64,000 nucleotides of DNA from Polyangia bacterium (GTDB taxonomy: Bacteria > Myxococcota_A > Polyangia > Fen-1088). Location of the stretch: NCBI GenBank assembly GCA_038257535.1, contig JBBSJE010000003.1:1436-65435 (forward strand). The letters are read 5' to 3'. The notes under the pieces are model-generated. The model saw only the letters and a list, made by a program, of their open reading frames with translations, had not been told where the DNA came from and ran no database searches. A program made the translations under genes and the position numbers. Positions 7,699 through 21,474 of this stretch are shown here, in pieces; position 1 is the first letter of the stretch; every line of letters begins with the position of its first letter.

Positions 7699-8874
7699 AT
7701 GGCTACGTTCTCGAGTTTTCTCAAAGACATCAAATCGCAGATCCGGGAAACCGACGTTCCTTCGGTGAAGGAAATGGTTACCAGCCGCGGCAAAACCGCA
7801 GCCGGCCCCGTATTGCTCGACGTACGCGAAAAGGACGAATACCTAGAAGGGTATATCCCTGGCGCCAAGTGGATCCCTCGCGGCTTCCTTGAGCTTCGCA
7901 TCGAAGAGCAGGTTCCCGAAAAGACCAGCGAAGTGGTGCTTTACTGCGCGGGGGGGACGCGCTCGGCCTTGGCCGCCAAGGCGCTTGAAGATTTGGGCTA
8001 CACCAATGTGAAGTCGATGGCGGGCGGCTTTACCGCCTGGAAGCGCGCCGGCTTGGCCTTCGATCGCCCCTATGTGATGACGCAGGATCAGGCGATTCGC
8101 TACGCCCGCCACACCATGCTGCCCGAGGTGGGCGAAGAGGGGCAGGTCAAGCTGCTCAAGTCGCGCGTGTTGTGCTTGGGTGCTGGCGGCCTGGGATCGC
8201 CTGCGGGATTTTACTTGGCCGCTGCCGGCGTGGGCACCTTGGGCCTGATCGACGACGACGTGGTGGATGCCTCAAATCTGCAACGACAGATCTTGCACTC
8301 AACCGACACAGTGGGCATGCCCAAGGTGGAATCGGCTGCGCGCAGGCTCAACGCCTTGAACCCTGACGTAAAAGTGGTTCAGCACAAGACGCGGCTGAGC
8401 TCCGAAAACGTGCTGGACATCCTCAAAGACTACGACGTGATCGTTGACGGCGTGGACAACTTCCCCACGCGCTACTTGCTCAACGACGCCGCGCTCAAAC
8501 TGAACAAGCCGGTGGTTCACGCGTCGATTTACAGGTTCGAGGGCCAGCTGACATGCTTCATTCCTGACGAAGGCCCCTGCTACCGCTGCTTGTATCCTGA
8601 GCCGCCACCGCCTGACATGGCGCCCTCGTGCCAGGAAGCCGGCGTGGTGGGCGTACTGCCGGGTGTGGTGGGCGTGTTGCAAGCCACCGAGGCGATCAAG
8701 ATCATTTTGGGCCTAGGAAAATCGATGGCGGGCCGCTTGATGATGTACGACGCCCTGGGCAGCAAGTTCCGCGAGATGAAGCTGCGCCGCGATCCGAAAT
8801 GCCCCACCTGCGGTGAGGGTGTGGATCGCAGCAAGATTGAGCTCATCGACTACGAACAGTTCTGCGCGGTGTGA
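7699..8874 (+). CDS. Rhodanese-domain / ThiF-MoeB (E1-like adenylyltransferase) fusion protein
   Basis: N-terminal rhodanese domain (LLDVREKDEY, active-site loop YCAGGTRS). The ThiF/MoeB core has the GAGGLGSP nucleotide loop and two Cys pairs, CYRC and CPTC. Confidence 0.8.
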   Translation: MATFSSFLKDIKSQIRETDVPSVKEMVTSRGKTAAGPVLLDVREKDEYLEGYIPGAKWIPRGFLELRIEEQVPEKTSEVVLYCAGGTRSALAAKALEDLGYTNVKSMAGGFTAWKRAGLAFDRPYVMTQDQAIRYARHTMLPEVGEEGQVKLLKSRVLCLGAGGLGSPAGFYLAAAGVGTLGLIDDDVVDASNLQRQILHSTDTVGMPKVESAARRLNALNPDVKVVQHKTRLSSENVLDILKDYDVIVDGVDNFPTRYLLNDAALKLNKPVVHASIYRFEGQLTCFIPDEGPCYRCLYPEPPPPDMAPSCQEAGVVGVLPGVVGVLQATEAIKIILGLGKSMAGRLMMYDALGSKFREMKLRRDPKCPTCGEGVDRSKIELIDYEQFCAV

Positions 8875-8894
8875 GCCGCGAATTTGTTGCCCCA

Positions 8895-8922
8895 GAGGGG
8901 TGCCAATGCCAAGGCACCCCTC
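8895..8922 (+). terminator. Perfect 10-bp GC-rich hairpin after the moeB-like gene
   Basis: gaggggtgcc-aatgccaa-ggcacccctc lies 21 nt after the stop. Only a weak T-rich tract (ctgttttgtgttattt) follows after a 12-nt gap. Confidence 0.45.
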
Positions 8923-8959
8923 GTGCGGCGGCTCTGTTTTGTGTTATTTACGAAGCCTC

Positions 8960-10111
8960 ATGCCCAAGGTCTTCGTTCCCAAAGAAACCCAACCTGGTGA
9001 AACCCGTGTGGCCGCAACGCCCGAAACCGTAAAAGCCTTTGTGAAGGCCGGTTTGGAGGTGGTGGTGCAAGCCGACGCGGGCCGCGCGTCGCATATGCTT
9101 GACCACGCTTATGCAGAAGCGGGGGCCAGGCTCACCAGCGCGCCCGCGGCCGAGTGGGGCCAAGCGGACATGGTTCTCAAAGTTGTTGGCCCCGCGCCGC
9201 ATGAAGTCGCCCAGATGAAGCCCGGAGCCATCTTGGTTTCATTCATCACCCCGCACAAGAATCTGCCTCTGGTCAAGGCGTTGGTGAACCAAAGAATCAG
9301 CACCTTGGCAATGGAGCTGGTGCCGCGCATCACAAGGGCGCAAAAGATGGATGCGTTGTCGTCCCAGGCAAGCATCGCGGGCTACAAAGCCGTTCTGGTG
9401 GGCGCCACCAGGCTGGGCAAATACTTTCCCATGCTGATGACAGCCGCGGGCACGGTGCAGCCTGCGAAGGTGGTGATCATGGGCGCGGGCGTGGCGGGGC
9501 TTCAGGCCATCGCGACCGCAAAGCGTTTGGGCGCCGTCATCTGGGTTTCCGATGTACGACCGGCGGTCAAAGAGCAGGTAGAATCGCTGGGCGGCAAGTT
9601 CATTGATCTGCCGATGGAAGAAAGCGGCGAAGGGCAGGGCGGCTACGCAAAAGAAATGAGCCCAGAGTTCTTGGCCAAACAGCAGGCGATCATTGCCGAA
9701 CACGTGGCCAGCGCCGACGTGGTGATCACCACCGCGCAGATCCCCGGCAAGCCCGCGCCTCGCTTGGTGACCGCGGAGACCGTAAAGAAGATGCGTCCCG
9801 GCTCCGTGATTGTGGACCTTGCGGCCGAGCAGGGGGGCAACTGCGAATTGACCGAAGCCGGTCAAGACGTGCTGAAACATGAAGTGTTGATTGTGGGCAC
9901 CACCAACTGGCCTGCCACCATGCCTTTGGACGCCAGCATGTTGTACGCGCGCAACATTCAGGCGCTGGTGCTGCACATTCTAAAGAAGGGCGAAGCGGGG
10001 CCATCGCTGAACATTGACACCGCCGAAGAGGTTACGCGGGGAACTTTGCTCACCCACGCGGGCGAAGTGCTTCACGGCCCCACGGCCGAAGCGGTTAAGA
10101 CGGGGACGTAA
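8960..10111 (+). CDS. pntAA: NAD(P) transhydrogenase subunit alpha part 1 (soluble dI domain)
   Basis: ORF 8813..10111 trimmed to ATG 8960. MPKVFVPKETQPGETRVAATPETVKAFVKAGLEVVVQADAG matches the PntA N-terminus. It has the Rossmann loop VVIMGAGVAGLQA, is 383 aa long, and has no TM segment. Confidence 0.85.
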   Translation: MPKVFVPKETQPGETRVAATPETVKAFVKAGLEVVVQADAGRASHMLDHAYAEAGARLTSAPAAEWGQADMVLKVVGPAPHEVAQMKPGAILVSFITPHKNLPLVKALVNQRISTLAMELVPRITRAQKMDALSSQASIAGYKAVLVGATRLGKYFPMLMTAAGTVQPAKVVIMGAGVAGLQAIATAKRLGAVIWVSDVRPAVKEQVESLGGKFIDLPMEESGEGQGGYAKEMSPEFLAKQQAIIAEHVASADVVITTAQIPGKPAPRLVTAETVKKMRPGSVIVDLAAEQGGNCELTEAGQDVLKHEVLIVGTTNWPATMPLDASMLYARNIQALVLHILKKGEAGPSLNIDTAEEVTRGTLLTHAGEVLHGPTAEAVKTGT

Positions 10112-10448: not shown

Positions 10449-10892
10449 ATGCTTTCGATCGACACCAACATCCTTCTGCACGCCTTCAACGAAGATTCGC
10501 CCCGCCACGCTTCTGCGTACGCCTGGCTAACGTCGATCCAGCGCGAGGAAGAGGTGGCCATCTCCGAGTTCATCCTCGCCGAACTTTACGGCCTGCTCCG
10601 CAACCCCGTCGTGCTCACACACCCACTGTCCTCCGATGAGGCCGTCGAGGTCATCCAATCTTATCGCACGCACCCGCGTTGGCGACTGATCGGCTTTCCC
10701 ACCGAGAGCCGACCCCTGCACGACACTCTTTGGCAGAAGGCTCGCTCCACCGCTTTTGCCTTCCGAAGACTTTACGATGTCCGCAGTGCCCTCACGATGA
10801 CCGCTCAGGGCGTAACTGAGTTTGCGACCGCGAACGTAAAGGACTTTCAGGGCATGGGCTTCAAAAAACTGTGGAACCCGATAGCCAGGTAA
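10449..10892 (+). CDS. vapC: PIN-domain ribonuclease toxin VapC
   Basis: 147 aa. It has MLSIDTNILL (first acidic residue), ILAELYG, LYDVRSA and TANVKDF, in the usual PIN acidic-residue spacing. Confidence 0.85.
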   Translation: MLSIDTNILLHAFNEDSPRHASAYAWLTSIQREEEVAISEFILAELYGLLRNPVVLTHPLSSDEAVEVIQSYRTHPRWRLIGFPTESRPLHDTLWQKARSTAFAFRRLYDVRSALTMTAQGVTEFATANVKDFQGMGFKKLWNPIAR

Positions 10893-10936: not shown

Positions 10937-11713
10937 CTAAGTTGGTGTAAGCGGTAGCGATTGCGCGCGGCGAATGTAATTGGCCGCGCGCTCTGCGGCT
11001 TCCGCCGACCACGACCGGAACCGAAGGTGCACGGTGAGCGGGTCGTGGGCGTCTCGAACAAATTGCACCTCGGCGCGCCGGTCCCGGTAACCGCACCAAT
11101 GCGCCGCCCAGCGCAAGCGCGCCAACTCGTGCTCGTTTTTCACTGTCACCGAAAGTTCCACCGCCACCGTTTTGTCGGGTGTTGCGATGGAAAATGGTTG
11201 ATCGTGCAGGGCGGAGATCGGCACATGCAGCCTGTCTCCGTTGTCCAATCGAAGCACCAAGTGAAACAATCCGAAGGATTCCACCACACCTTGGCCTTGG
11301 GCAATCGTTAGGCGATTTGCGGTTTTTAAGTGGCCCCGCAAAATGGTCCATGCGCCACCCAACCAAGCGCGCGAGCGGAAGCCTACCGCCACCAAAGCCC
11401 CAGCCACAAGGGCGCCCAACAATACGGTTACCAGCAGGGGCGCGGCGCTGTAGGCAAACAGCACTAACAAACTTAGCGCGAACCACGCCCCGAACAAACG
11501 CATGCCGAACGCCGCTTGTGCGCCCAGTGCCATGCCCGTGCGGCTGCGGCCGCGCCCCAGCAGCCGAGATGCGAACATCACCAGCAGCAAGGCCAAACCC
11601 AAAAGCACGAAGAGGGCCGTGGCGCCTTGCACGAAGAACGCGCCCAGTCCTTCGATCTGCGCCCTCAAAGTGTTTTCAATTTGTGTTCCCCACTCTTCAT
11701 TTTTGGCGCTCAT
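10937..11713 (-). CDS. Small MscS-like mechanosensitive-channel-fold protein
   Basis: 258 aa with three or four N-terminal hydrophobic helices. The segment GHLKTANRLTIAQGQGVVESFGLFHLVLRLDNGDRLHVPISAL resembles the MscS beta-domain (G..V..I....T.lrt.dg....iPN). Its start overlaps the upstream stop by 4 nt (ATGA). Confidence 0.6.
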   Translation of the reverse strand: MSAKNEEWGTQIENTLRAQIEGLGAFFVQGATALFVLLGLALLLVMFASRLLGRGRSRTGMALGAQAAFGMRLFGAWFALSLLVLFAYSAAPLLVTVLLGALVAGALVAVGFRSRAWLGGAWTILRGHLKTANRLTIAQGQGVVESFGLFHLVLRLDNGDRLHVPISALHDQPFSIATPDKTVAVELSVTVKNEHELARLRWAAHWCGYRDRRAEVQFVRDAHDPLTVHLRFRSWSAEAAERAANYIRRAQSLPLTPT

Positions 11714-14700
11714 GGTCGGGTCTCCGGGGTCAGAATGCCCAGCTCCTCAAGCCCTCGTTGCAAGGGGCCATCAAGGTGAGGGGGAACGAATAAGGTTTGT
11801 CCATGCTCCCCGGCGCGCACGATGCTGGCATCGCGCAAAGGCAGCACGAAACGCGCGGCCGTCACTTCATCTACCAACATAAGCGAGGCCAATTCCGTCA
11901 GCGATAGGGGGCCGTAAGCGATGAAGAACCCCAGGCAGGCCATGGCGTCGGTTCCCAGACGAGCCAGAAAGGGCAGCGCGGCCCGTGTATCGCTGCGAAC
12001 CAGGAATCGATCCTCGCCCAACGCTTTGAGGCTGCGCAGGTGTGTGAGCAAGGCGTGCCTCAGGTTGCCCCGCGTAGCTTGCGCCAACGCGCGGTAATAG
12101 CCATCGCGCGCGCGCTTTTCCACAGCGCGGCGGCTGCCGTCGGGGGCGTACGACAATTTCACCCCCGCCAGCCGTGCCCGCGTTTCAATGCACAACCGCA
12201 GGTCATCGGCGCCCAAAGGCGACAAATCCAGCTGGCGGCCAAACACCTGCGAGAGCGACAACGTCTCTTGAAACAAATTGTAGGCGGTGCGTCCCACCGA
12301 AACGATCCATCGCGCTTCAGGCGAAGACTGAACCATCAATTCCATGAACCTTTGCAGCGAGGCCAACCCTTGTTCATTGGGAAGCACGTAGTGCTGCAAA
12401 TCATCAATGAGAACCACCGCGCGTCGTCGCTTGACGGTGTCCAAGATGCTGGCGAAGTCATCCGCGCAACCAAGCTCTGCAGCGATGGCCTCGAGCAATC
12501 CCTCGCTGCGATGGTGAAAGCGTGGGTCTAGCCTAACAACTTGAAACCGCGCGAGGCGTAGTTCCACGATGTTGATGACCGAGCTGCGTCCGGCGCCACG
12601 CGCGCCGGTGATCAACACATTGGTGAAGCTATCTAGGCGGCCCTTTTGAAGATGCGAGATGAGATCTTCCAAAGCGCCGCGCCGTGCGGTCACCAAGCGA
12701 ATGTCGTCGATGGGATCGGGGCTAAACCCATTGCGGCAGCTTGTGGGCAAAGATAGCGTTTCAGACTCTTTGAAGTTGGCAAGCAGGATGCGCCGAATGC
12801 CGCTAGGGTCCATGTTGTCGGAGCGGGCTTCAAACAGCCAACCAGGAACATTCTTTCGGCGCGCCAACCGCATGGTGGCTGACAGCAGCATGCGCAGCCA
12901 GTGTTGCCCGCGGCTGAGGATGGACATAAACGCACGTCGCGCGGCTTGCTGCGTTTGCCCCATCGAAGCGCGCAGCCTGTCTTTCGCACCTGCCTGCGAG
13001 GTCAAAAGCGTGTCCAGGGTGGACAGCGTTTCTGTTGACGCTTCATTAAGGCGGCCGCGCGCCTGCTCCAACGACTTCGCTACCTCGTCCAAGATGATTT
13101 GGATCTGATCGTGCGCCCGCCCGAGTACCTCTGGGATCGTGGTCTTGAGCTCATCGGAGGCTTCGTCCCCGCTGCGTTCAAGCGCGCGCATGCCAAACGC
13201 GGCGATGGCCAACGCGGCCTCCACACGCTCGTCAATGTCGGCCATGTGTTCTGACAAGGGGCCCAGCGCCTCGGCAAAACGCGGCACAAAGCGATCGATG
13301 AGCGCCTCTTGAAGCGCGTCGGCCAAGTCCAGGGTGTCGGTGCGCAAATCAGCGAGATCGGCGTCAATCCGAAACATCGTGGTGTCGCGTGCCGGATGCA
13401 GTTCCTTGGGCACCGTCTCCACAATCTTTGAGCAATCGGTCAACAGTTCGGAAAACTGCGTGGCGTGGCGGTACTTTGCTTTCAGGCCAGTGAGTCGGTT
13501 GCGCTCGCGCTTGGTCAGGATCTCTTCAAAGCGACGGGTGTAGGTTTGGCCCACTTTGCCACTGAGCTGTGCGTTGGTGTCTTCGCGCAGTTCGGCCAGT
13601 GGCTGCAGTACCCCCTGAATCAAAGGGGCGATTTCATTCTCAACCAACGCCAAGGGGGCCCAACATCGGCGTTCCACAGCAGAGCGGAACTGTGAGCCCG
13701 CAGCGTCGAGCGCAGCCGTGGCCTTGAGGCCATCCATGGCCGCCGCCACCAATCGTTGCCATCGCGGCAGCCTCTGATTGCGCCGTTTGCGGGCCGCTTC
13801 AATCGCAGGCAGCACTTCCGACAAGCGCACTTCCGAGGCCGGGTGGCCCGGCCCCCCCAACCGATCAAGCCACAATGCGCCTGTTTGCATGCCTTGGTTC
13901 AAAGCGTCGTCGATCCGCGCTTTGGTTTGCGAAGCCCATCTTGCTTCGTGGCGATCCAAGCGCAGCCGACATTCTTCGGCGTCGATGAGTCCTTTCGCCA
14001 ACAGGGTCAAGGGCTCGGTCAATCCCAGCTCGTACAAGAACAAGCTTTCCCCTAGCAATGAAACCGCATCGACCATCGGCTTTTCAAATGCAAGCCGCAT
14101 CGTCAACCGGATGGGAACATTGCGGCGGCGGGGGTAGAGCCGTACCATGCTCAGGGCCTTGGTGAAAAGCTTCACGGCCTTGACTTCCAAAAAATCGTCG
14201 TTAGCCGCCCGGAAGTTTTCGGGCGTCAGGCGAACCTGCAAGCGTTCGGGGAAGCTCTCCAAGGTTGCAATCAAAGTGCGCTCGAGCGCATCAAGCGAAG
14301 GCGCCAGGGTCTGCGCGTTGGTGAGCCCTTCAACATTGAGGAGCCGCAGCATGGTTTGAGAGGCACGTTCATCGCCTTCACGGTCAGATGAGGCGCGAAG
14401 GGCGCCTAGCTTGCTGGCCGCACAGCGCTCCTCAATGGTGCTCTCCCAGAACGTTTCGATCTGCGCCTTCAACTCGTCGCCCGCCGACACCAAGGCCAGC
14501 TCCAACGCCGGATCGTTGGGAAGCGTGAGGGTGGGTTTGGGCTGAGGCTCTTCGTTTGGGACAGGGTCTGCGCTCGTGAGCGCGTCGGTAACAGCAGGGG
14601 CAACGGATGCGGTGGGCGCTGGCTCCGGTTGTGGCTTCGTAAGCGCGCGCGCCACATCCCCTGCGCGGCGCAAGGCGATTCCTAGCGTGACGGGGCCGAT

Positions 14701-15930
14701 CAAGAGGTTGATCGAGACCACCGCCAGCCCCATGCTCATGATGGCGTTCGACAGTTCAGGCAGTTGTCGCGCTGTAAGCAGCACCAACCCCAGCGTGACA
14801 CCGGCTTGCGGAATGTATGCCAGCCACGCGTTGTCGCGAACGGCGGGGCGTTCACCGCCCGCGCGCGTGCCCACGGCACTGGCGATGTAAAAGGTGATGG
14901 CGCGAGCGCCCGCCATGGCCGCCGCCAACGGCAATAGTTTCAACGTGCCCTGCAAATCCACGCCAGCTCCAGCGGTGGTAAAGAACACCACGAAAACCGG
15001 CAGCGACACGCGCGTCAGCGGTGTGAGCAGGGTGTGCTCAAACTTAGAGAAATTGCGCACCACAAATCCGGCGGCGATCAACACCAAAAGCAGTTCAAGG
15101 TGCAGCGCATCCGAGGCTTCTGCCGTTAGCAACACCAATGCCACCAAGGCCAACAACATCTCTTTGCCGAAAAAGCGCACGTACAGGATCAGGAAGAATC
15201 CTAAGCCCGAACCAAACAAGATGGAGCCACCCAGCTCCTTGGCCACGTGCACAAGCGCGCCGCTGTTGAAGTGGGAATCTGAACTAACAAAACTGCGACC
15301 CACGGCGATGGCCACAGCCAAAGAAACCACAACCACCAGATCTTTGACCACCGCCATGGCAAGCGTGAGATCCGCCATGCGTCCTTTGGCCTTGGAATCG
15401 TTGATCACGGCAAGCGACACCGAGGGGGAGGTGCCGATGGCCAACACGGCGAAGATCAATGCCAGGGCCACGACGGCACCCTTGGTCGGCAGCCCCAGAA
15501 GCGGATGGTAGGTTTCGATCAACCAGAACGCGCCGCCCACTGACAGCATCAGCATGGGGACCTTGACAGCAACGGTCACCATCAGGGTCCGAAAAACCTT
15601 TTGGGTGGCTTTCACATCAAGCTCGAGACCGGCCGTTAGAGCGATGAGCCCCAGCGCCAACGTGTTGAACACACGCATGTCGCTGACGATGCGATGGGAA
15701 AGAATGTTCGACAGCTGTGGCCCGAACACCACACCGCTAAGGATGTATCCCGTAATTTTCGGAATCGAAAGTGTGGCCACCAATTCACCCACGGTGAACG
15801 ACGCCAAAACCACGAACCCAATGGCCGCCAAAGTCAACGGACTGTCAGATTCAAGGTCGATCTCATTCAAGAATAGCTTCAGCCCTATCATCACCCCCAA
15901 GAGCGTGGCGAGGACCAGCAGCCGCCTCAT
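11710..15930 (-). CDS. 1406-aa fusion: CPA2-type cation/proton antiporter domain, long helical region, and C-terminal P-loop NTPase (AAA/ORC-like) with an atypical Walker A
   Basis: The single long ORF has ATGA overlaps at both ends. N-terminal motifs are IPKITGYILSGVVFGPQ, GTSPSVSLAVINDSKAKG, PVFVVFFTTAGAGVD and IPQAGVTLGL. A Pro-rich linker lies at about 14515-14645. Walker A reads ITGARGAGRSS (12583-12606) and Walker B reads VVLIDDLQ (12394-12417). Confidence 0.85.
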   Translation of the reverse strand: MRRLLVLATLLGVMIGLKLFLNEIDLESDSPLTLAAIGFVVLASFTVGELVATLSIPKITGYILSGVVFGPQLSNILSHRIVSDMRVFNTLALGLIALTAGLELDVKATQKVFRTLMVTVAVKVPMLMLSVGGAFWLIETYHPLLGLPTKGAVVALALIFAVLAIGTSPSVSLAVINDSKAKGRMADLTLAMAVVKDLVVVVSLAVAIAVGRSFVSSDSHFNSGALVHVAKELGGSILFGSGLGFFLILYVRFFGKEMLLALVALVLLTAEASDALHLELLLVLIAAGFVVRNFSKFEHTLLTPLTRVSLPVFVVFFTTAGAGVDLQGTLKLLPLAAAMAGARAITFYIASAVGTRAGGERPAVRDNAWLAYIPQAGVTLGLVLLTARQLPELSNAIMSMGLAVVSINLLIGPVTLGIALRRAGDVARALTKPQPEPAPTASVAPAVTDALTSADPVPNEEPQPKPTLTLPNDPALELALVSAGDELKAQIETFWESTIEERCAASKLGALRASSDREGDERASQTMLRLLNVEGLTNAQTLAPSLDALERTLIATLESFPERLQVRLTPENFRAANDDFLEVKAVKLFTKALSMVRLYPRRRNVPIRLTMRLAFEKPMVDAVSLLGESLFLYELGLTEPLTLLAKGLIDAEECRLRLDRHEARWASQTKARIDDALNQGMQTGALWLDRLGGPGHPASEVRLSEVLPAIEAARKRRNQRLPRWQRLVAAAMDGLKATAALDAAGSQFRSAVERRCWAPLALVENEIAPLIQGVLQPLAELREDTNAQLSGKVGQTYTRRFEEILTKRERNRLTGLKAKYRHATQFSELLTDCSKIVETVPKELHPARDTTMFRIDADLADLRTDTLDLADALQEALIDRFVPRFAEALGPLSEHMADIDERVEAALAIAAFGMRALERSGDEASDELKTTIPEVLGRAHDQIQIILDEVAKSLEQARGRLNEASTETLSTLDTLLTSQAGAKDRLRASMGQTQQAARRAFMSILSRGQHWLRMLLSATMRLARRKNVPGWLFEARSDNMDPSGIRRILLANFKESETLSLPTSCRNGFSPDPIDDIRLVTARRGALEDLISHLQKGRLDSFTNVLITGARGAGRSSVINIVELRLARFQVVRLDPRFHHRSEGLLEAIAAELGCADDFASILDTVKRRRAVVLIDDLQHYVLPNEQGLASLQRFMELMVQSSPEARWIVSVGRTAYNLFQETLSLSQVFGRQLDLSPLGADDLRLCIETRARLAGVKLSYAPDGSRRAVEKRARDGYYRALAQATRGNLRHALLTHLRSLKALGEDRFLVRSDTRAALPFLARLGTDAMACLGFFIAYGPLSLTELASLMLVDEVTAARFVLPLRDASIVRAGEHGQTLFVPPHLDGPLQRGLEELGILTPETRP

Positions 15931-17150
15931 GACACCACCTCTGGGGCTTGCGCGATGGGAGCCACAACGTCACGCTGGTGTTCACCGGCATCCACCAGCA
16001 CACGGCGAATGGCCGAGGATCCGATGACATCGCTGACCACCACGCCTATCACGGTGATGCAAAGGACCACGCGCCCCTCAGGCTCCGAGACCTGATCATG
16101 GTTGATGGCAATGGCCACAGCCAATCCGCCTTGCCGCAGCAGCGCGTTGCCCACGCGTGGCACACGCGGCAAGCCGGGCAGCAGCCAGCACGTCACTCCT
16201 GTGATCAAGCGCAGAACGCAAAAGCGAATGGCAAGATAAGCCGGGGCCACCAACCATAGCCACGAATGGATTGGCATCCATAAGACGCCCGCAAAGATCA
16301 TTAGCAGCACAATGGCGGGGCGTTCCAAGCGCTCAAGATGCGCATACAGCGCTTCTGCGTCTTTCGACAGCAAAGACACAACCACGCCCGCAAGCATGTT
16401 GATCAGCAGTGGCGACACATCGGCTGCCAAAGCCAACCCGCTTGCAAAGGTAATCACGCCCACCGTGGCCAAAAACAGGCGATCGTCGCTTTCCTGTTTG
16501 CGACGACCCATAAACATGGCGAACAGCAGCCCCGAGGCGATGCCCAAGCCAACCAACGCGGCCAACCACGTGGTTCCCGAAAGCCCGAAACGATCGGAGG
16601 CTTGGCTGGACCTTCTCCAGGCCAAGGCGGTTCCCGCGGCCGCCACCGCCACCACCGAAAGCGCCAGCGAAAGGCTGCGCACGAGTTCAGTGACCACACC
16701 GCGGGCGCGAACCGATTGCAAGGTGCTTTCCACGCCGGGCAGCGATGTGGCCGCGGCCGCGCATGCCAAGGAAATGGCCACCCATAGCGGCTGCCCGGGC
16801 ACCCAGCGCGTAAGGTAGAGCAGCAGCGCGAAGAAACTTGCCGCCATCGCCGCCAACGAAAACAAGGCGGCTGTGGCGCCCGCTTCGAGCGCATGTGCGG
16901 TGGCGAGCCGGCGTCGCAGCGCGAGCCCCAGCATGAAACCCACCATCCCCAACAGAAGCGAGATCACGGGCCCCAGCGATTGCAGCGTGTTGTCGCCCAG
17001 CAAACCGGCGCCCCAGGGGCCCAGCAAGGCGCCGATCACAATGTATTGCGCATCAGGCACAAAACCCAATCGCGCGGTGTAGCGCCGTACCAAGCCACTG
17101 ACGACCACAGCGAATGTGACCACCAGCACAAGCGTTATCGTTGTGGACAT
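15927..17150 (-). CDS. CPA2-like (Na+/H+ exchanger fold) membrane protein without an RCK/KTN domain
   Basis: ORF 15927..17306 trimmed to ATG 17150 (MSTTITLVLVV); 17306 remains an alternative start. LGFVPDAQYIVIGALLGPWGAGLL and LERPAIVLLMIFAGVLW resemble the CPA2 TM1 and TM-core motifs. There are about 11-12 hydrophobic segments. Confidence 0.65.
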   Translation of the reverse strand: MSTTITLVLVVTFAVVVSGLVRRYTARLGFVPDAQYIVIGALLGPWGAGLLGDNTLQSLGPVISLLLGMVGFMLGLALRRRLATAHALEAGATAALFSLAAMAASFFALLLYLTRWVPGQPLWVAISLACAAAATSLPGVESTLQSVRARGVVTELVRSLSLALSVVAVAAAGTALAWRRSSQASDRFGLSGTTWLAALVGLGIASGLLFAMFMGRRKQESDDRLFLATVGVITFASGLALAADVSPLLINMLAGVVVSLLSKDAEALYAHLERLERPAIVLLMIFAGVLWMPIHSWLWLVAPAYLAIRFCVLRLITGVTCWLLPGLPRVPRVGNALLRQGGLAVAIAINHDQVSEPEGRVVLCITVIGVVVSDVIGSSAIRRVLVDAGEHQRDVVAPIAQAPEVVS

Positions 17151-17275: not shown

Positions 17276-18880
17276 TTAGAGCGGTCGCGTGGACTCTTGT
17301 CGCCAATCACTCGAACGCATGCCAATCACGTTGTACACGGCAAGCTCTTTTTCTTTCCCCTTCACACGCAATGGAGGCAAGCGGATGGCCGCCACGCGAT
17401 CCATGACTTTTTGATAGGTATGTTCAGATACCAGCAGTTGACCGGGTTTGGCGTTTGAGCACAACCGCGCAGTGGTGTTGACAGCGTCGCCGATGGCCGT
17501 GTACTGCAAGGCGCGGGAGCTACCAATGGCCCCCGTAACCACTTCCCCGGTGTTGATGCCGATGCCGATTTCAATCTCAGGCAAGCCTTCAGACACCCGC
17601 ACCCGGTTCCAATCCTTGAGCACCTTCAGCATTTCCAGCGCGCACTCAATGGCGCACAATTCGGCCGTGGGAATGGGCACGGGCGCACCGAACAGCGCAA
17701 TGACCTCGTCGCCCACGAACTTATCCAGCGTGCCCTGATGGCGGAAGATCACATCCACCATGATCTCGAAGTATTCGTTCAGCATGCGAACGATCTCTTC
17801 GGGCGATGTATTTTCGCTCATGCTGGTGAAGCCGCGGATGTCGGAAAACAGCAAGGTGATCTCGCTGCGTTGGCCACCCTTTTCTAGCTGAAGGTGACCT
17901 TTAACGATCTGCTCAACGAGGTTGGGCGAAAGCAGCCGTTGAAATTGCGCGCGCGTGCTGGCTTCGTGCTCAATCTTCTTGGCCAGCAGAGTGTTTGAGA
18001 TCGCAACTGCGGCTTGGCCCGCAATGCTGCTGAAGATCTGCAGGTCTTTTTCACCAAAAGCATTGGCTGTGATCAGCGAATCCAGGTGCATGATGCCCAA
18101 GATTTCGCCCTTGTGCAAAAGCGGCACCGTCATGGTGGATCTGATGCCCTGAATGATGATCGAGTGGGCGCCCGAAAACCGGCTGTCCATCGACGCATCC
18201 GAAGACAGCACGGCAATCTTTTTCGCCAGAACCTCGTTGATGATCGACGACGAAAGCGCGATCTGTTCGGCGCGGCCGTCACGCGTGCGGGCGATGCGCG
18301 GCGTGGGTACACCATTTTCCAACAGCAAAATCACGCCTCGATCGGCGGGAAGCAGATCAAACGCTTTGGCGATGATCTTGTCCAGCAGCACGTCCAGGTT
18401 CACTTCCAAGCCAATGGAACGGCCCAGTTCGTGCGCCATGCGCAGCTTTTCGTAGTCGCGCCTCAAGACATCCAGATCCGTGATGCGCGCCTCAGGGAGA
18501 AACTCTTGGTCCTCGCGCTGCGTCTGTATGGTTTGACGAATCAGCGTCTCCTGGGAGTGCTCGATGGTGACTTGTTGCGCCGGCGCGGGGGCCATGGCCT
18601 GGGCGCGGTACACCAGCCGCGTGGCGCCCATCACAATCTCGTCGCCCTCGACGAAGATGCGTTCGCCCACCCGCTCATCGGCGTAGAACGAGCCGTTCAA
18701 GCTGCCCAGGTCGCGGAACAAAAACCGTCCGTCCGGCTGCCGGATGATCTGGGCATGCTCTTTGGAGACAATGCGGTCCAGAATTTGGATGGTGTTGTCC
18801 GGATGCCGCCCAATGGTGGTCATTGGGCCTAGCTCGAACTCACGTTCCTCGTTGTTGGCAACTACTATCAGCTTGGGCAT
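17276..18880 (-). CDS. FHA - GAF - class III adenylate/guanylate cyclase
   Basis: FHA domain: TIGRHPDNTIQILDRIVSKEHAQI...RDLGSLNGSF. A central GAF-like region follows. Cyclase domain: ITLLFSDIRGFTSMSE, KFVGDEVIALFGAP, IGINTGEVVTGAIGS, YTAIGDAVNTTARL. Confidence 0.9.
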   Translation of the reverse strand: MPKLIVVANNEEREFELGPMTTIGRHPDNTIQILDRIVSKEHAQIIRQPDGRFLFRDLGSLNGSFYADERVGERIFVEGDEIVMGATRLVYRAQAMAPAPAQQVTIEHSQETLIRQTIQTQREDQEFLPEARITDLDVLRRDYEKLRMAHELGRSIGLEVNLDVLLDKIIAKAFDLLPADRGVILLLENGVPTPRIARTRDGRAEQIALSSSIINEVLAKKIAVLSSDASMDSRFSGAHSIIIQGIRSTMTVPLLHKGEILGIMHLDSLITANAFGEKDLQIFSSIAGQAAVAISNTLLAKKIEHEASTRAQFQRLLSPNLVEQIVKGHLQLEKGGQRSEITLLFSDIRGFTSMSENTSPEEIVRMLNEYFEIMVDVIFRHQGTLDKFVGDEVIALFGAPVPIPTAELCAIECALEMLKVLKDWNRVRVSEGLPEIEIGIGINTGEVVTGAIGSSRALQYTAIGDAVNTTARLCSNAKPGQLLVSEHTYQKVMDRVAAIRLPPLRVKGKEKELAVYNVIGMRSSDWRQESTRPL

Positions 18881-19365: not shown

Positions 19366-20460
19366 TCAGGGCGACAAACCGGAATCGCTGGGGGGGCTGT
19401 TGCCCTGCGCGGTTAAGACCTGCGCCAGCTGGCTGCGCAGGCACACGAGACCAATCACCATTTGCACGGACACGGCGAGCACCCAACCGGTGAGGCTGGC
19501 GGCAAACACCGCCGCTTCGGCAGGGCGACCGTCGCCGGGGCCATAGGGCGCAAACACAGCCACCATCACCGCTTGCACGGCGCCCAGGCCCTGACCAGGA
19601 AGGGGAATGGCTGCCACCAAGAACGAGATCGGCAGAAACAAAAGCGCCTGAAGTGGGGGCACTTGCACGTCAAAGGCGTAAAGGTAGAGGTAGGCAAACA
19701 CGAGCAAGCTGGCGATGTGGGGCAGGCGCGCCAACAGGGCTTTGCCGTGGCCTGCCAGGCCTGCGGAAAACAACACCTGGAAAACTTCGCGGCGGGCCAA
19801 AAACTTGGGTTTGGCCAGCACAAGCGCCACATAAGCGGCAAGCCCACCGTAGCCGGCTAGGGCCAAAATGCGGGCGGTGGCCAAGGTGCCCGAAGCGGCG
19901 TCGGGCACGTCACCCGACAGGGCCAATCCGGCGGTGGCGGCAAACAACAACAGCAGCAAGTTGGTGCCCATGATCAAGAGCACGGTGGCCCCTGTGCGCA
20001 AGATGGGAACGCGCTTGGTTTTGTGCAGAAAATACGCAAACGCGCCTTGGCCCACGGCGTAGTTCACCAGCGCCAAGATGTACGAGGCACCGCGAACGGT
20101 GAGGGCTTCGCGGTAGGTCAGCGGGGCGGCGAACCACGAGAAGGTCTTCCAGGCCGCAAAGGTGTCGGCGGCGTAAACGACCAACACCATAAAAACCAAC
20201 ACGGGCAGCGTCCATGGCGCGGCGTTGGCGAGCGAAGCGGCCACGTCGCGCAGCGGGATTCGCGAAAACAGATACACCAAAATGGCCACGGCCACCGCCC
20301 AGGCGCCCAAACGGACGAGGCGCTGGGTTGACGTTTTTGCGGGCTTGGGTGCGGGCGAGCCCGAGGGCACCGGCGAGCGCGCCGGCGAGGTCGGCAAGGG
20401 TGATGGCAAGGGTGATGGCAAGGGTGATGGTAGAGGCGGCTGCATGGACGGGCGCATCAT
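19366..20460 (-). CDS. Flippase-like / lysyl-phosphatidylglycerol-synthase-TM-like (UPF0104) membrane protein
   Basis: ORF 19366..20601 trimmed to ATG 20460 (MMRPSMQPPLPSPLPSPLPSPLP). It has 8 or more hydrophobic helices. RLVRLGAWAVAVAILVYLFSRIP...ALVNYAVGQGAFAYFL is typical of the family as I remember it. Confidence 0.65.
   Translation of the reverse strand: MMRPSMQPPLPSPLPSPLPSPLPTSPARSPVPSGSPAPKPAKTSTQRLVRLGAWAVAVAILVYLFSRIPLRDVAASLANAAPWTLPVLVFMVLVVYAADTFAAWKTFSWFAAPLTYREALTVRGASYILALVNYAVGQGAFAYFLHKTKRVPILRTGATVLLIMGTNLLLLLFAATAGLALSGDVPDAASGTLATARILALAGYGGLAAYVALVLAKPKFLARREVFQVLFSAGLAGHGKALLARLPHIASLLVFAYLYLYAFDVQVPPLQALLFLPISFLVAAIPLPGQGLGAVQAVMVAVFAPYGPGDGRPAEAAVFAASLTGWVLAVSVQMVIGLVCLRSQLAQVLTAQGNSPPSDSGLSP
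20393..20430 (-). repeat. 12-nt in-frame tandem repeat (ggcaagggtgat x3) encoding (PLPS)n
   Basis: Read directly from the sequence: three perfect copies plus a partial one. Confidence 0.85.
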
Positions 20461-20526
20461 CGCACGATGTGGCGGCAAAAGAAGTTCTTCCCCCAAGCCC
20501 CTGGGTCGAAGTACGCTGCAACCGCC

Positions 20527-21474
20527 ATGACTGTGACGGGGCTCGAAACACCGCAGGGTTTGGCGCCACTCACGTGGGAGGCGCCGGAGGGGTGGCTGCA
20601 ATCACAGTCTTGCCGGCTGGCAGCGTACCTACCCTTGGAGGGTTTGGTGGCGGGTCGGCGCGTGCTTGATGTGCGGGGCGTGCCAGCGGCCCACGATCGT
20701 TTGCGCCGCGCGCGGGCCCGCGGGGTGGTGAGCGTGGGCGCCACCCCATGGCGGGTTCCTGACGCCAGCATGGACGTTGTCTTGCTGCTGGACGCTGGCT
20801 CCCCCGTGCAGCCCGATGTGTTGGCCGAGGTCAAGCGGGTGCTGTCTCCACAAGGTTTTGTGGCGTGGCGGCTGGCGGCTCCAGCTGGCCATAGCCGGGG
20901 CGAATTGACCGCGCCGCTAACCCAGGCTTTCGCCACTGTTGAGTCGCTGGGTCAGGTTCCCATCGCCGGGTTTACTTTTGATCGCGGCGGCAGTCCCGAG
21001 GTGGTGGTGGCCGAGGACCTGTTCCCTACCAGCGCCGCCCCCAGCCACATTTTGGCCTTGTGCGCGCCCGGCTCCGATCGGCCGTGGGAGGGATTGGAGT
21101 CATGGGTGGTGCCGTTGGCCCGGCCCGAGGTTGCAGGGCGGGCCGCCCCGCCTTTGCCGGATGAGCGCGCGGCCTGGGAGCAACGAATCGCAGAGCTCTT
21201 GCATGAGCGCGAATACCTGCGGGAAGCCGTGATGACTTTGCAAGACGAGCGCGAACGGCTGGAACGCTTGGCCACCAATTTGCGCCGAGATGCCGACCGC
21301 AATTTGGCGCGGTTGTCTGAGCAAGCGGCGGCGCTCGAGGTGTTGGGCTTGGAGCGAGACCACGCCGAGCGGCGCGCGGGGCGGGCAGGTGCGGCCCGTG
21401 GGCCTGGGGAGGATCTGCATCCCGATCTCAGTGGCCCCGACACGATGGTGGATTCCCCTTGGCGACCCGCTTGA
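20527..21474 (+). CDS. Hypothetical protein: degenerate class I methyltransferase-like N-terminus plus C-terminal coiled coil
   Basis: ORF 20467..21474; ATG 20527 is preferred because 20467 would leave only 6 nt to the divergent gene. RRVLDVRG...VVLLLDAG...VLAEVKRVLSPQGFV resembles the SAM-MTase motif I/post-I/III spacing but lacks the GxGxG loop. The C-terminus has a heptad-like ERERLERLATNLRRDADRNLARLSEQAAALE. Confidence 0.5.
   Translation: MTVTGLETPQGLAPLTWEAPEGWLQSQSCRLAAYLPLEGLVAGRRVLDVRGVPAAHDRLRRARARGVVSVGATPWRVPDASMDVVLLLDAGSPVQPDVLAEVKRVLSPQGFVAWRLAAPAGHSRGELTAPLTQAFATVESLGQVPIAGFTFDRGGSPEVVVAEDLFPTSAAPSHILALCAPGSDRPWEGLESWVVPLARPEVAGRAAPPLPDERAAWEQRIAELLHEREYLREAVMTLQDERERLERLATNLRRDADRNLARLSEQAAALEVLGLERDHAERRAGRAGAARGPGEDLHPDLSGPDTMVDSPWRPA

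Follow-up and report, generated by a model that had tools for sequence, protein, structure and literature searches.

A CPA-type membrane domain joined to a helical stalk and a predicted ORC/Cdc6-RuvB-like AAA+ module, encoded beside a small MscS-family channel in Myxococcota and Bdellovibrionota

Gene B, the subject of this study, lies in a 64,000-nucleotide stretch of the genome of a Polyangia bacterium (assembly GCA_038257535.1, contig JBBSJE010000003.1, positions 1,436 to 65,435 of the forward strand), referred to as the window, and encodes a fusion protein of 1406 amino acids. The protein joins a membrane domain of the cation/proton antiporter (CPA) superfamily to a long helical stalk, a predicted AAA+ (ATPases associated with diverse cellular activities) module, and a winged helix. 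Across the relatives of B, the near-constant core is the unit of helical stalk, AAA+ domain, and winged helix, located beside the gene of a small MscS-like channel, and comparison of the architectures points to the N-terminal transporter domain as a lineage-specific addition. It is proposed tentatively, with somewhat less than even credence, that B belongs to a membrane complex for ion and osmotic homeostasis in which the AAA+ module is a nucleotide-state switch for flux. The family appears to be undescribed, and the system is of a known kind, in which a nucleotide-binding regulator in the cytoplasm is attached to a transporter or channel.

Gene B occupies positions 11710..15930 of the minus strand, stop codon included, as a single uninterrupted open reading frame (ORF) with an ATG start, and all its features below are on that strand. 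The CPA-superfamily (Na_H_Exchanger, Pfam PF00999) membrane domain comprises residues 1-428 (14647..15930) and is followed in the translation by a proline-rich linker of residues ~429-472 ('KPQPEPAPTASVAPAV...PVPNEEPQPKPTLTLPNDP'; 14515..14646), which varies in length and sequence among homologs and leaves no conservation in the consensus. The region of residues 473-1039 (12814..14514) is all-alpha in the AlphaFold2 (AF2) model and forms an elongated bundle or stalk. AF2, Foldseek, and Pfam place N-terminal helices and the AAA+ alpha/beta nucleotide-binding core at residues 1040-1239 (12214..12813). The AAA+ lid, which carries R1251 and a sensor-2-like G-N-L-R (1288-1291), covers residues 1240-1311 (11998..12213), and the C-terminal winged-helix domain, recognized by a profile search against the PDB and by the AF2 topology, covers residues 1312-1406 (11713..11997). 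A preliminary description, made from the letters of the window alone, had pointed out this ORF, its Walker A and Walker B motifs, the proline-rich linker, and the motif SVGRTAYN (residues 1211-1218), and the translation contains all of them as described.

Homologs of B are numerous. Among the 8000 best word-sharing candidates that were scored, 361 matched at E<=1e-3; the best 120 of these 361 are mostly ~1350-1470 amino acids long with 30-62% identity, and 75 of the 120 could be aligned end to end (29-62% identity). When one genome per species was scanned, relatives appeared in 126 genomes of Myxococcota and Bdellovibrionota/Oligoflexia, the myxococcotal hosts being Nannocystaceae, Polyangiaceae, Kofleriaceae, and the cultured Enhygromyxa salina and Paraliomyxa miuraensis. 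Because there are hundreds of homologs, with relatives in 126 species genomes, gene B is real and not a chance ORF. The databases name the homologs only 'cation:proton antiporter' or 'KefB'. When Pfam is run on the whole of B, Na_H_Exchanger is the only family above threshold, residues 430-1100 are without a match, and neither an RCK/KTN (TrkA_N) nor a CBS regulatory domain is found. The NCBIfam scan gave just weak MagA and ZorA matches far under the cut-off, and single-sequence phmmer against the PDB gave nothing relevant. The whole-B profile matched apolipoproteins and designed bundles in the PDB, and these matches were rejected as an effect of low-complexity helical composition. For the stalk and for the assembly as a whole, Pfam, NCBIfam, and PADLOC offer no model. 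The preliminary description had called the architecture one that it could not place, and had named as counter-evidence a match of the C-terminal region to a known transporter-regulatory family or an architecture that is common and already annotated. No such regulatory family matches; the architecture is frequent in two phyla, and its cytoplasmic part is without annotation.

AF2, run on the C-terminal module (residues 1040-1406) with the 75-sequence alignment, gave a very confident model (pLDDT 94.6, pTM 0.92) in which a P-loop core of alpha/beta type is followed by a helical lid and then by a winged helix. In the Foldseek search of the PDB, RuvB, archaeal Orc1/Cdc6, and eukaryotic ORC/Cdc6 subunits came first (E ~3e-8 to 1e-6, probability 1.00), followed by CED-4, TnsC, and classic AAA proteins (CED-4 and TnsC up to E 5e-6); NLR structures were matched too. 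The module is thus modelled as an ORC/Cdc6-RuvB-like AAA+ domain, and AF2 and Foldseek agree with the earlier view of the last ~330 residues as an AAA/ORC-Cdc6-style P-loop unit with a winged-helix-like tail. Family models of the AAA_16 and AAA_22 type, to which the preliminary description had looked, answer only in part. AAA_22 gives a sub-threshold Pfam match to residues 1105-1201 (E 2e-5), AAA_16 matches some B homologs only, and DUF815 and nSTAND6 (E 0.14) are likewise sub-threshold, as are the models of the STAND class (signal transduction ATPases with numerous domains).

The motifs of the module fit this fold. Walker B reads V-V-L-I-D-D-L-Q (residues 1172-1179; 12394..12417), with the family consensus hhhhDDLE. 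In the 75-sequence alignment, D1176 is present in 74 sequences, D1177 in 64, and Glu at position 1179, where the window has Gln, in 61. Residues G1109, G1112, G1114, S1117, D1176, W1208, R1251, and G1288 of the nucleotide pocket are invariant or nearly so, and this pattern indicates that the pocket is under selection. An 'F-x-R...L-x-P-L' stretch leads into the lid helix bearing the invariant R1251, and the family motif G-N-L-R-x-A-L is located at the sensor-2 position; the B protein of the window has G-N-L-R at 1288-1291 and a candidate arginine finger, F-G-R, at 1230-1232. In the AF2 model, two helices at fragment residues 106-114 and 120-130 separate beta2 from the Walker-B strand and are compatible with the initiator-specific helical insertion of DnaA, ORC, and Cdc6. 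The winged helix has an ArsR/MarR-like fold, and over residues ~1318-1400 the family profile finds NmtR, BigR, ArsR, and SmtB in the PDB (E 4e-4 to 0.05).

Walker A reads G-A-R-G-A-G-R-S (residues 1109-1116; 12583..12606), with Arg1115 (codon CGC) in place of the canonical lysine. The family consensus is GxxGSG[RK][TS]S, in which the glycines and the Ser/Thr are conserved. Among 71 species loci (one genome per species), the lysine position is occupied by Arg in 42, Lys in 28, and Cys in one, and among the 75 closest homologs, a sample biased toward close relatives of the window copy, by Arg in 64, Lys in 8, and Cys in 3. The cysteine, with codon TGC, thus occurs in few members, for example at locus L044. 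In a neighbour-joining tree of the AAA+ module, the basal Bdellovibrionota loci have Lys in six of seven cases, the Nannocystaceae-like and Enhygromyxa-like clades have Lys too, and the change from Lys to Arg has at least three independent origins with one apparent reversal; Lys looks ancestral at this position. The arginine codons are CGN in 38 of 41 cases, two steps from AAR. Since Arg is found in most species loci and is encoded by CGN codons, it is not an artefact of sequencing or of one strain; the family survey and the codons rule this out. The tree and the codons together argue for an old, fixed, and recurrent substitution. The exchange reported in the preliminary description is hence confirmed for the window and for the majority of loci, where the family is not uniformly of the GK[ST] type, but it is not universal, as more than a third of the loci keep Lys. 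A Walker-A Lys-to-Arg change usually keeps nucleotide binding and cripples hydrolysis, as in RecA K72R. Because arginine generally spares binding and cuts hydrolysis, we infer that what matters for the function of the B family is whether nucleotide is bound, more than how fast it is turned over. The Arg-type members, including the window copy, would then likely be slow or non-hydrolysing sensors.

Conservation within B is highest in the membrane domain, with a mean column identity of 58% against 38% for the whole protein. Na_H_Exchanger matches residues 43-421 (E 5.4e-18, 65.4 bits against a cut-off of 26.2) and is spanned from profile position 4 to 374 of 375. When the family profile of the domain is compared with the PDB, the best matches are NHE6 and NHE9 of the CPA1 group (E 3e-5), whereas the CPA2 protein NapA is at E ~1. 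The alignment with NHE6/9 pairs 'IGTSPAIALAV' with 'SATDPVTVLAI', and 'gaavlKDlvvv' with 'gEsvlNDAvai'. In the first pair, T167-S168-P169 (15424..15432), the motif of the unwound transmembrane segment (TM) 4, aligns with the T-D-P of NHE6/9, Ser replacing Asp. In the second pair, the TM5 ion-site motif K196-D197 (15340..15345) aligns with the N-D of CPA1, which is D-D in electrogenic CPA2. Both motifs are invariant in a 37-sequence alignment, and K196-D197 is nearly invariant in the 75-sequence alignment. The intramembrane polar residues T167, S168, K196, D197, and N293 are invariant, and R292 and Q375 are nearly so.

These residues can be read on the eight-residue CPA motif defined by Masrati et al. 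2018 (PMC6181914). Positions 1-4 are G-T-S-P in the B family, so that the TM4 Asp of position 3 is absent and Ser168 is present instead; position 5 is not Glu, which is CPA2-like; and positions 6-7 are K-D, by which the TM5 ion-binding Asp of position 7 (D164 of EcNhaA) is retained as D197. Position 8 is probably R292 according to a putative alignment. CPA2 proteins are characterized by the absence of Glu at position 5, by D, N, or Q at position 6, and usually by Lys at position 8, and a CPA2 domain would be expected to come closest to NapA, NhaA, or Kef. K+-selective Kef-like CPA2 proteins also have no Asp at position 3 (L-S-S-T), and Lys at position 6 is not among the states named for the main clades (PMC6181914). 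The domain is, on these motif states, best regarded as a divergent branch of the CPA superfamily. The preliminary description had spoken of a clear CPA2 domain, which is correct as to the superfamily and too strong as to CPA2, because the ion site is K-D and the closest solved relatives are NHE6 and NHE9.

The stalk between the two parts was modelled with AF2 on residues 470-1060 (75-sequence alignment; pLDDT 89.9, pTM 0.79) as an all-alpha structure with helices of 40 to 100 residues. Foldseek with this model against the PDB found no significant match (best E 0.12); the similarities to the ZorA tail, TolC, and BAR domains (E>0.1) were rejected as generic to long helices, and Pfam and NCBIfam have no family for residues 473-1039. 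The earlier account of a helical middle region of ~550 residues without a known motif is therefore borne out, at a length of ~570 residues. The stalk has homologs all the same: it is homologous to the N-terminal region of relatives that lack the transporter domain (hhalign probability 98.7, E 3e-16, 432 columns).

Gene B is the middle member of a set of three genes on the same strand, with 4-nucleotide ATGA overlaps at both junctions, and this arrangement marks A-B-C as a translationally coupled operon. Gene A (15927..17150, minus strand), whose stop codon overlaps the ATG of B, encodes a polytopic membrane protein of 407 amino acids without a Pfam match. When its family is compared with that of the N-terminal part of B, hhalign aligns 376 columns with a probability of 99.35 and E 6e-21. 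It has hydrophobic residues opposite K196-D197 of B and lacks the ion-site Asp; A is therefore assigned by profile comparison as a full-length CPA-fold paralog of the B membrane domain with a degenerate ion site. Gene C (10937..11713, minus strand), whose ATG overlaps the B stop by 4 nucleotides, encodes a small MscS-family channel homolog of 258 amino acids. The profile of its family matches MscS in the PDB at E 3e-17 over profile positions 29-177, with MscS-fold matches from E 3e-17 to 1e-11, and the family shares the pore-lining TM3 and the beta-domain of MscS. Pfam PF00924 (MS_channel_2nd) is found in 42 of 43 members of the C family, the window copy alone being sub-threshold.

The operon is conserved. 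Synteny was counted on 80 fetched loci, of which 67 could be evaluated on the upstream side and 65 on the downstream side. An A ortholog is present upstream of B in 67 of 67, and C is present downstream in 61 of 65. The genes trkA-trkH are inserted between A and B in 37 of 67 loci, and the window carries the shorter A-B-C form. The loci with trkA-trkH include all Bdellovibrionota with enough upstream sequence, plus the Lys-type basal clades. Beyond A, B, C, and trkA-trkH, neighbours are not conserved across the loci inspected.

The module also occurs outside the CPA fusion. In an exhaustive phmmer search of 1.84 billion representatives, the AAA+ domain with its winged helix matched 1408 proteins at E<=1e-3, of which 388 are at E<=1e-10. 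Most of the 1408 are ~1400 amino acids long with the module at the C-terminus, and a subset of ~850-1040 amino acids has neither a TM segment nor a CPA signal. The AAA+ and winged-helix part is common to the fused and the transporter-less forms (hhalign probability 100, E 6e-54). Transporter-less forms were accepted when they had a Met start, no TM or CPA signal, and a position inside the contig with an upstream gene or intergenic DNA. Shorter matches (300-1050 amino acids) were otherwise rejected as new architectures, some of them being clearly truncated ORFs, such as P0125, which begins inside TM11. Seven transporter-less relatives were examined, and six of them have a Pfam-confirmed MscS-family neighbour with a 4-nucleotide overlap or a gap of <=13 nucleotides; the neighbour of the seventh, P0218, is an unassigned protein of 225 amino acids.

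Two further loci have no CPA domain. In a low-coverage Bdellovibrionota-like contig (L085, 2-4931), TrkH is followed by a 977-amino-acid helical-AAA+ protein without CPA and then by MscS, a case in which a member of the fused clade may have lost its CPA domain naturally; the upstream ORF was tried as a split-off CPA domain and rejected, as it is TrkH. P0252 (1638 amino acids; L092, 6001-11675) has an AA_permease domain (E 2e-41) fused to the helical and AAA+ module, with an overlapping MscS-family gene next to it. The MscS-family gene stands beside the module in eight of the nine non-CPA loci (the seven transporter-less relatives, L085, and P0252). The helical and AAA+ unit is older than the CPA fusion. 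Because the unit predates the fusion and the near-constant partner is an MscS-type channel, gating of the fused antiporter can at best be a part of its function. The fusion of transporter and NTPase, which the preliminary description had singled out, is real, but the near-constant genomic partner of the NTPase is the channel and not the antiporter domain.

Other genes were noted around these loci. Directly upstream of two transporter-less relatives (L086, 7497-7985; L087, 9-476) is a conserved gene of 155-162 amino acids (49% identity, E 3e-48) without a Pfam match, and its product may belong to the soluble-type system as a third component. A Bestrophin-like channel and an NhaC-type Na+/H+ antiporter are encoded near another soluble-type AAA+/MscS pair (L084, 10466-12970), and a further pair (L088) has a divergent OpuA-type glycine-betaine ABC transporter next to it; these neighbours give hints of an osmotic or ion theme. 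The L092 contig (1x coverage) has AbiEii, ART, RNA-ligase, and FHA genes near P0252. In the window itself, Pfam identifies an FHA-GAF-adenylate/guanylate cyclase of 534 amino acids (17276-18880, minus strand) ~125 nucleotides upstream of A. It is not conserved beside the operon, and it could be a local input of cyclic-nucleotide (cNMP) signalling. Upstream of the cyclase is a TM-domain protein like lysyl-phosphatidylglycerol synthase (LPG_synthase_TM; 19366-20601, minus strand; E 1.6e-12). On the other side, a PIN-domain (VapC-like) ORF (10449-10892, plus strand; Pfam) is convergent with gene C, and its end falls within the intergenic stretch downstream of the operon. Beyond the operon, Pfam finds a ThiF/MoeB and rhodanese protein of 391 amino acids (7699..8874, plus strand) and, adjoining it, an alanine dehydrogenase/PNT-type dehydrogenase of 432 amino acids (8813..10111, plus strand); the two genes overlap by ~60 nucleotides as called, and because the ORFs were called from the first start codon the real overlap is uncertain.

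The identities of the domains, the states of their motifs, the conserved operon, and the different architectures are observed. From them we infer complex formation, dimerisation of A with B, nucleotide binding, and an effect on transport, which together would work as follows. B would be the subunit at the centre of a conserved complex in the membrane that serves ion and osmotic homeostasis. CPA transporters function as dimers, and for this reason the CPA-fold domain of B, which keeps the key Asp, probably pairs with its degenerate paralog A as a heterodimer. The flexible proline-rich linker and the ~570-residue stalk would tie the CPA domain to the ORC/Cdc6-type AAA+ module, and the MscS-type channel C is a further product of the translationally coupled operon. 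The conformation or the oligomeric state of the AAA+ module would follow from the binding of ATP or ADP, and the stalk would relay this state to the CPA domain, to the MscS-like channel, or to both. The Arg-type P-loop would still bind nucleotide and hydrolyse it slowly or not at all, which makes it a sensor more than a motor. As to its origin, an ancient cytoplasmic helical-AAA+ protein would have been fused to a CPA domain in Myxococcota and Bdellovibrionota, and to an amino-acid permease in one other lineage.

Several observations weigh against this proposal. The sensor-2 residue R1291 and the candidate arginine finger R1232 are each lost in many members, so that the nucleotide cycle could be degenerate in part of the family. 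The members with Cys in Walker A suggest that tight nucleotide binding is perhaps dispensable. With K-D and T-S-P, the ion site of the CPA domain departs from the usual pattern, so that antiport activity is not assured. Moreover, gene adjacency is no proof of physical interaction, and the heptamer of MscS would have no obvious match in stoichiometry with the typical AAA+ hexamer.

The near-constancy of the MscS-family neighbour over all architectures, in which the transporter domain is absent or exchanged, also allows the AAA+ unit to assemble, remodel, or gate channel C only, the CPA domains of A and B being non-transporting anchors or pseudo-transporters. The missing ion-binding Asp of gene A and the unusual site of B agree with such a role. 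On the other hand, the high conservation of the B membrane domain and its invariant intramembrane polar residues go beyond the needs of an anchor, and the independent fusion to AA_permease, a real transporter family, speaks for the importance of transport activity; this explanation is accordingly considered rather unlikely. A membrane-tethered DNA-binding protein, serving chromosome anchoring or transcription control and linking ion status to the nucleoid, would account for structural matches to RuvB, Orc1/Cdc6, and ORC, which handle DNA and bear winged helices, and for the profile-level likeness of the winged helix to ArsR/SmtB/MarR repressors (best E 4e-4). However, the putative recognition helix is poorly conserved and the domain is acidic on average (mean net charge -1.6, range -11 to +7 across the family), which speaks, though weakly, against a sequence-specific interaction with DNA; each of the conserved neighbours serves ion transport and none belongs to DNA metabolism; and winged helices of AAA+ and STAND proteins are often purely structural. 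A DNA-binding role is improbable on this balance.

A role in anti-phage defence or conflict, in which the NTPase sensor opens the CPA or MscS pore and depolarises the cell as in abortive infection, is very improbable. Defence systems commonly pair a large P-loop sensor with a membrane effector, weak nSTAND matches exist (E 0.14, and E 8.8e-4 below the curated cut-off), ZorA tails are the top, non-significant Foldseek matches to the stalk (E 0.12), and the L092 relative is near AbiEii and ART, as a PIN gene is beside the window operon. PADLOC-DB 2.0, however, has no match for A, B, or C at E<=0.1, and the synteny with A and with the housekeeping genes trkA-trkH is stable (67 and 37 of 67 loci). 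The neighbour-joining tree groups the Bdellovibrionota loci at its base as two branches separate from the Myxococcota loci, a pattern in line with largely vertical inheritance more than with the mobility of an island, and relatives are found in varied housekeeping contexts (OpuA, haem synthesis, complex I).

A nucleotide-switched complex for osmotic/K+ flux remains the preferred reading, and it has consequences if the module does control flux. The control of K+ and osmolyte flux in bacteria is attributed almost entirely to RCK/KTN, CBS, and c-di-AMP-binding domains, and MscS channels are seen as tension-gated and autonomous. An AAA+ switch would be a new regulatory principle for the CPA and MscS families. 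It is possible, although less likely than not, that the ~950-residue helical-AAA+ protein and its small MscS-like partner form an unrecognized class of nucleotide-controlled channel complexes in several bacterial phyla. If this were true, different lineages would have bolted solute transporters (CPA, amino-acid permease, Trk) onto the helical-AAA+/MscS pair, osmolyte release and uptake would be coordinated by a single nucleotide-driven machine, and 'mechanosensitive' MscS-type pores could be gated enzymatically, beyond membrane tension alone. The recurrent natural Lys-to-Arg exchange is a ready-made evolutionary experiment on switch-type versus motor-type AAA+ proteins, and direct testing is feasible in the cultured hosts Enhygromyxa salina DSM 15201 and Paraliomyxa miuraensis. 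A search of the literature on AAA+ proteins with MscS, CPA with AAA+, and natural Walker-A arginines found no description of the B family, although such absence is no proof.

Among the known systems, Orc1/Cdc6, ORC, and RuvB have the same fold of base, lid, and winged helix as B (Foldseek E ~3e-8). The G-N-L-R-x-A-L at sensor 2 and the 'F-x-R...L-x-P-L....R' stretch, which resembles box VII and the first lid helix, are further similarities. In contrast, their identity to B is 11-18%, most close relatives of B have the Walker-A Arg, and B is membrane-anchored; B has no apparent conserved basic helix for reading DNA, and its context is ion transport and not replication or recombination. The STAND NTPases (AAA_16/MalT-like, NB-ARC) resemble B in the order of nucleotide-binding domain, helical domain, and winged helix, and in a Walker B of hhhhDD followed by an aromatic residue. 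The preliminary description had called the NTPase STAND/ORC-like, and the ORC/Cdc6-like part of this name agrees with the fold. Two features set B apart from the STAND proteins, to which it does not belong: no C-terminal repeat sensor arm follows the winged helix, where the protein ends, and the lid has a sensor-2-type G-N-L-R.

The channels MscK, MscM, and YnaI share with gene C the MscS pore helix and beta-domain. C is, however, minimal (170-300 amino acids across its family), and the large accessory part is a separate or transporter-fused polypeptide with an ATPase; no description of an ATPase accessory part for MscS channels was found in the literature searched.

In the Trk/Ktr and Kef systems, gating is the task of RCK/KTN domains that bind nucleotides in the cytoplasm; those of TrkAH and KtrAB are RCK rings whose binding of ATP or ADP controls the pore. 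The KefC/KefB-like CPA2 K+/H+ antiporters likewise have a CPA-fold domain covalently joined to a cytoplasmic nucleotide-binding regulator, in a context of K+ homeostasis, and in them, as in the B family, motif position 3 is not Asp and position 5 is not Glu (PMC6181914). Unlike them, B has no KTN/RCK (TrkA_N) domain; its regulator is an AAA+ domain with a winged helix behind an unprecedented 570-residue stalk, its motif position 6 is Lys and not Gln or Asp, and its best solved relatives are the CPA1 proteins NHE6/9. TrkAH and KtrAB differ from B in having a Rossmann-type RCK where B has a P-loop AAA+ domain, and the window operon has no trkA or trkH. What they share with B is the concept of a cytoplasmic adenine-nucleotide module that controls K+ flux, and trkA-trkH is itself located inside more than half of the evaluable operons.

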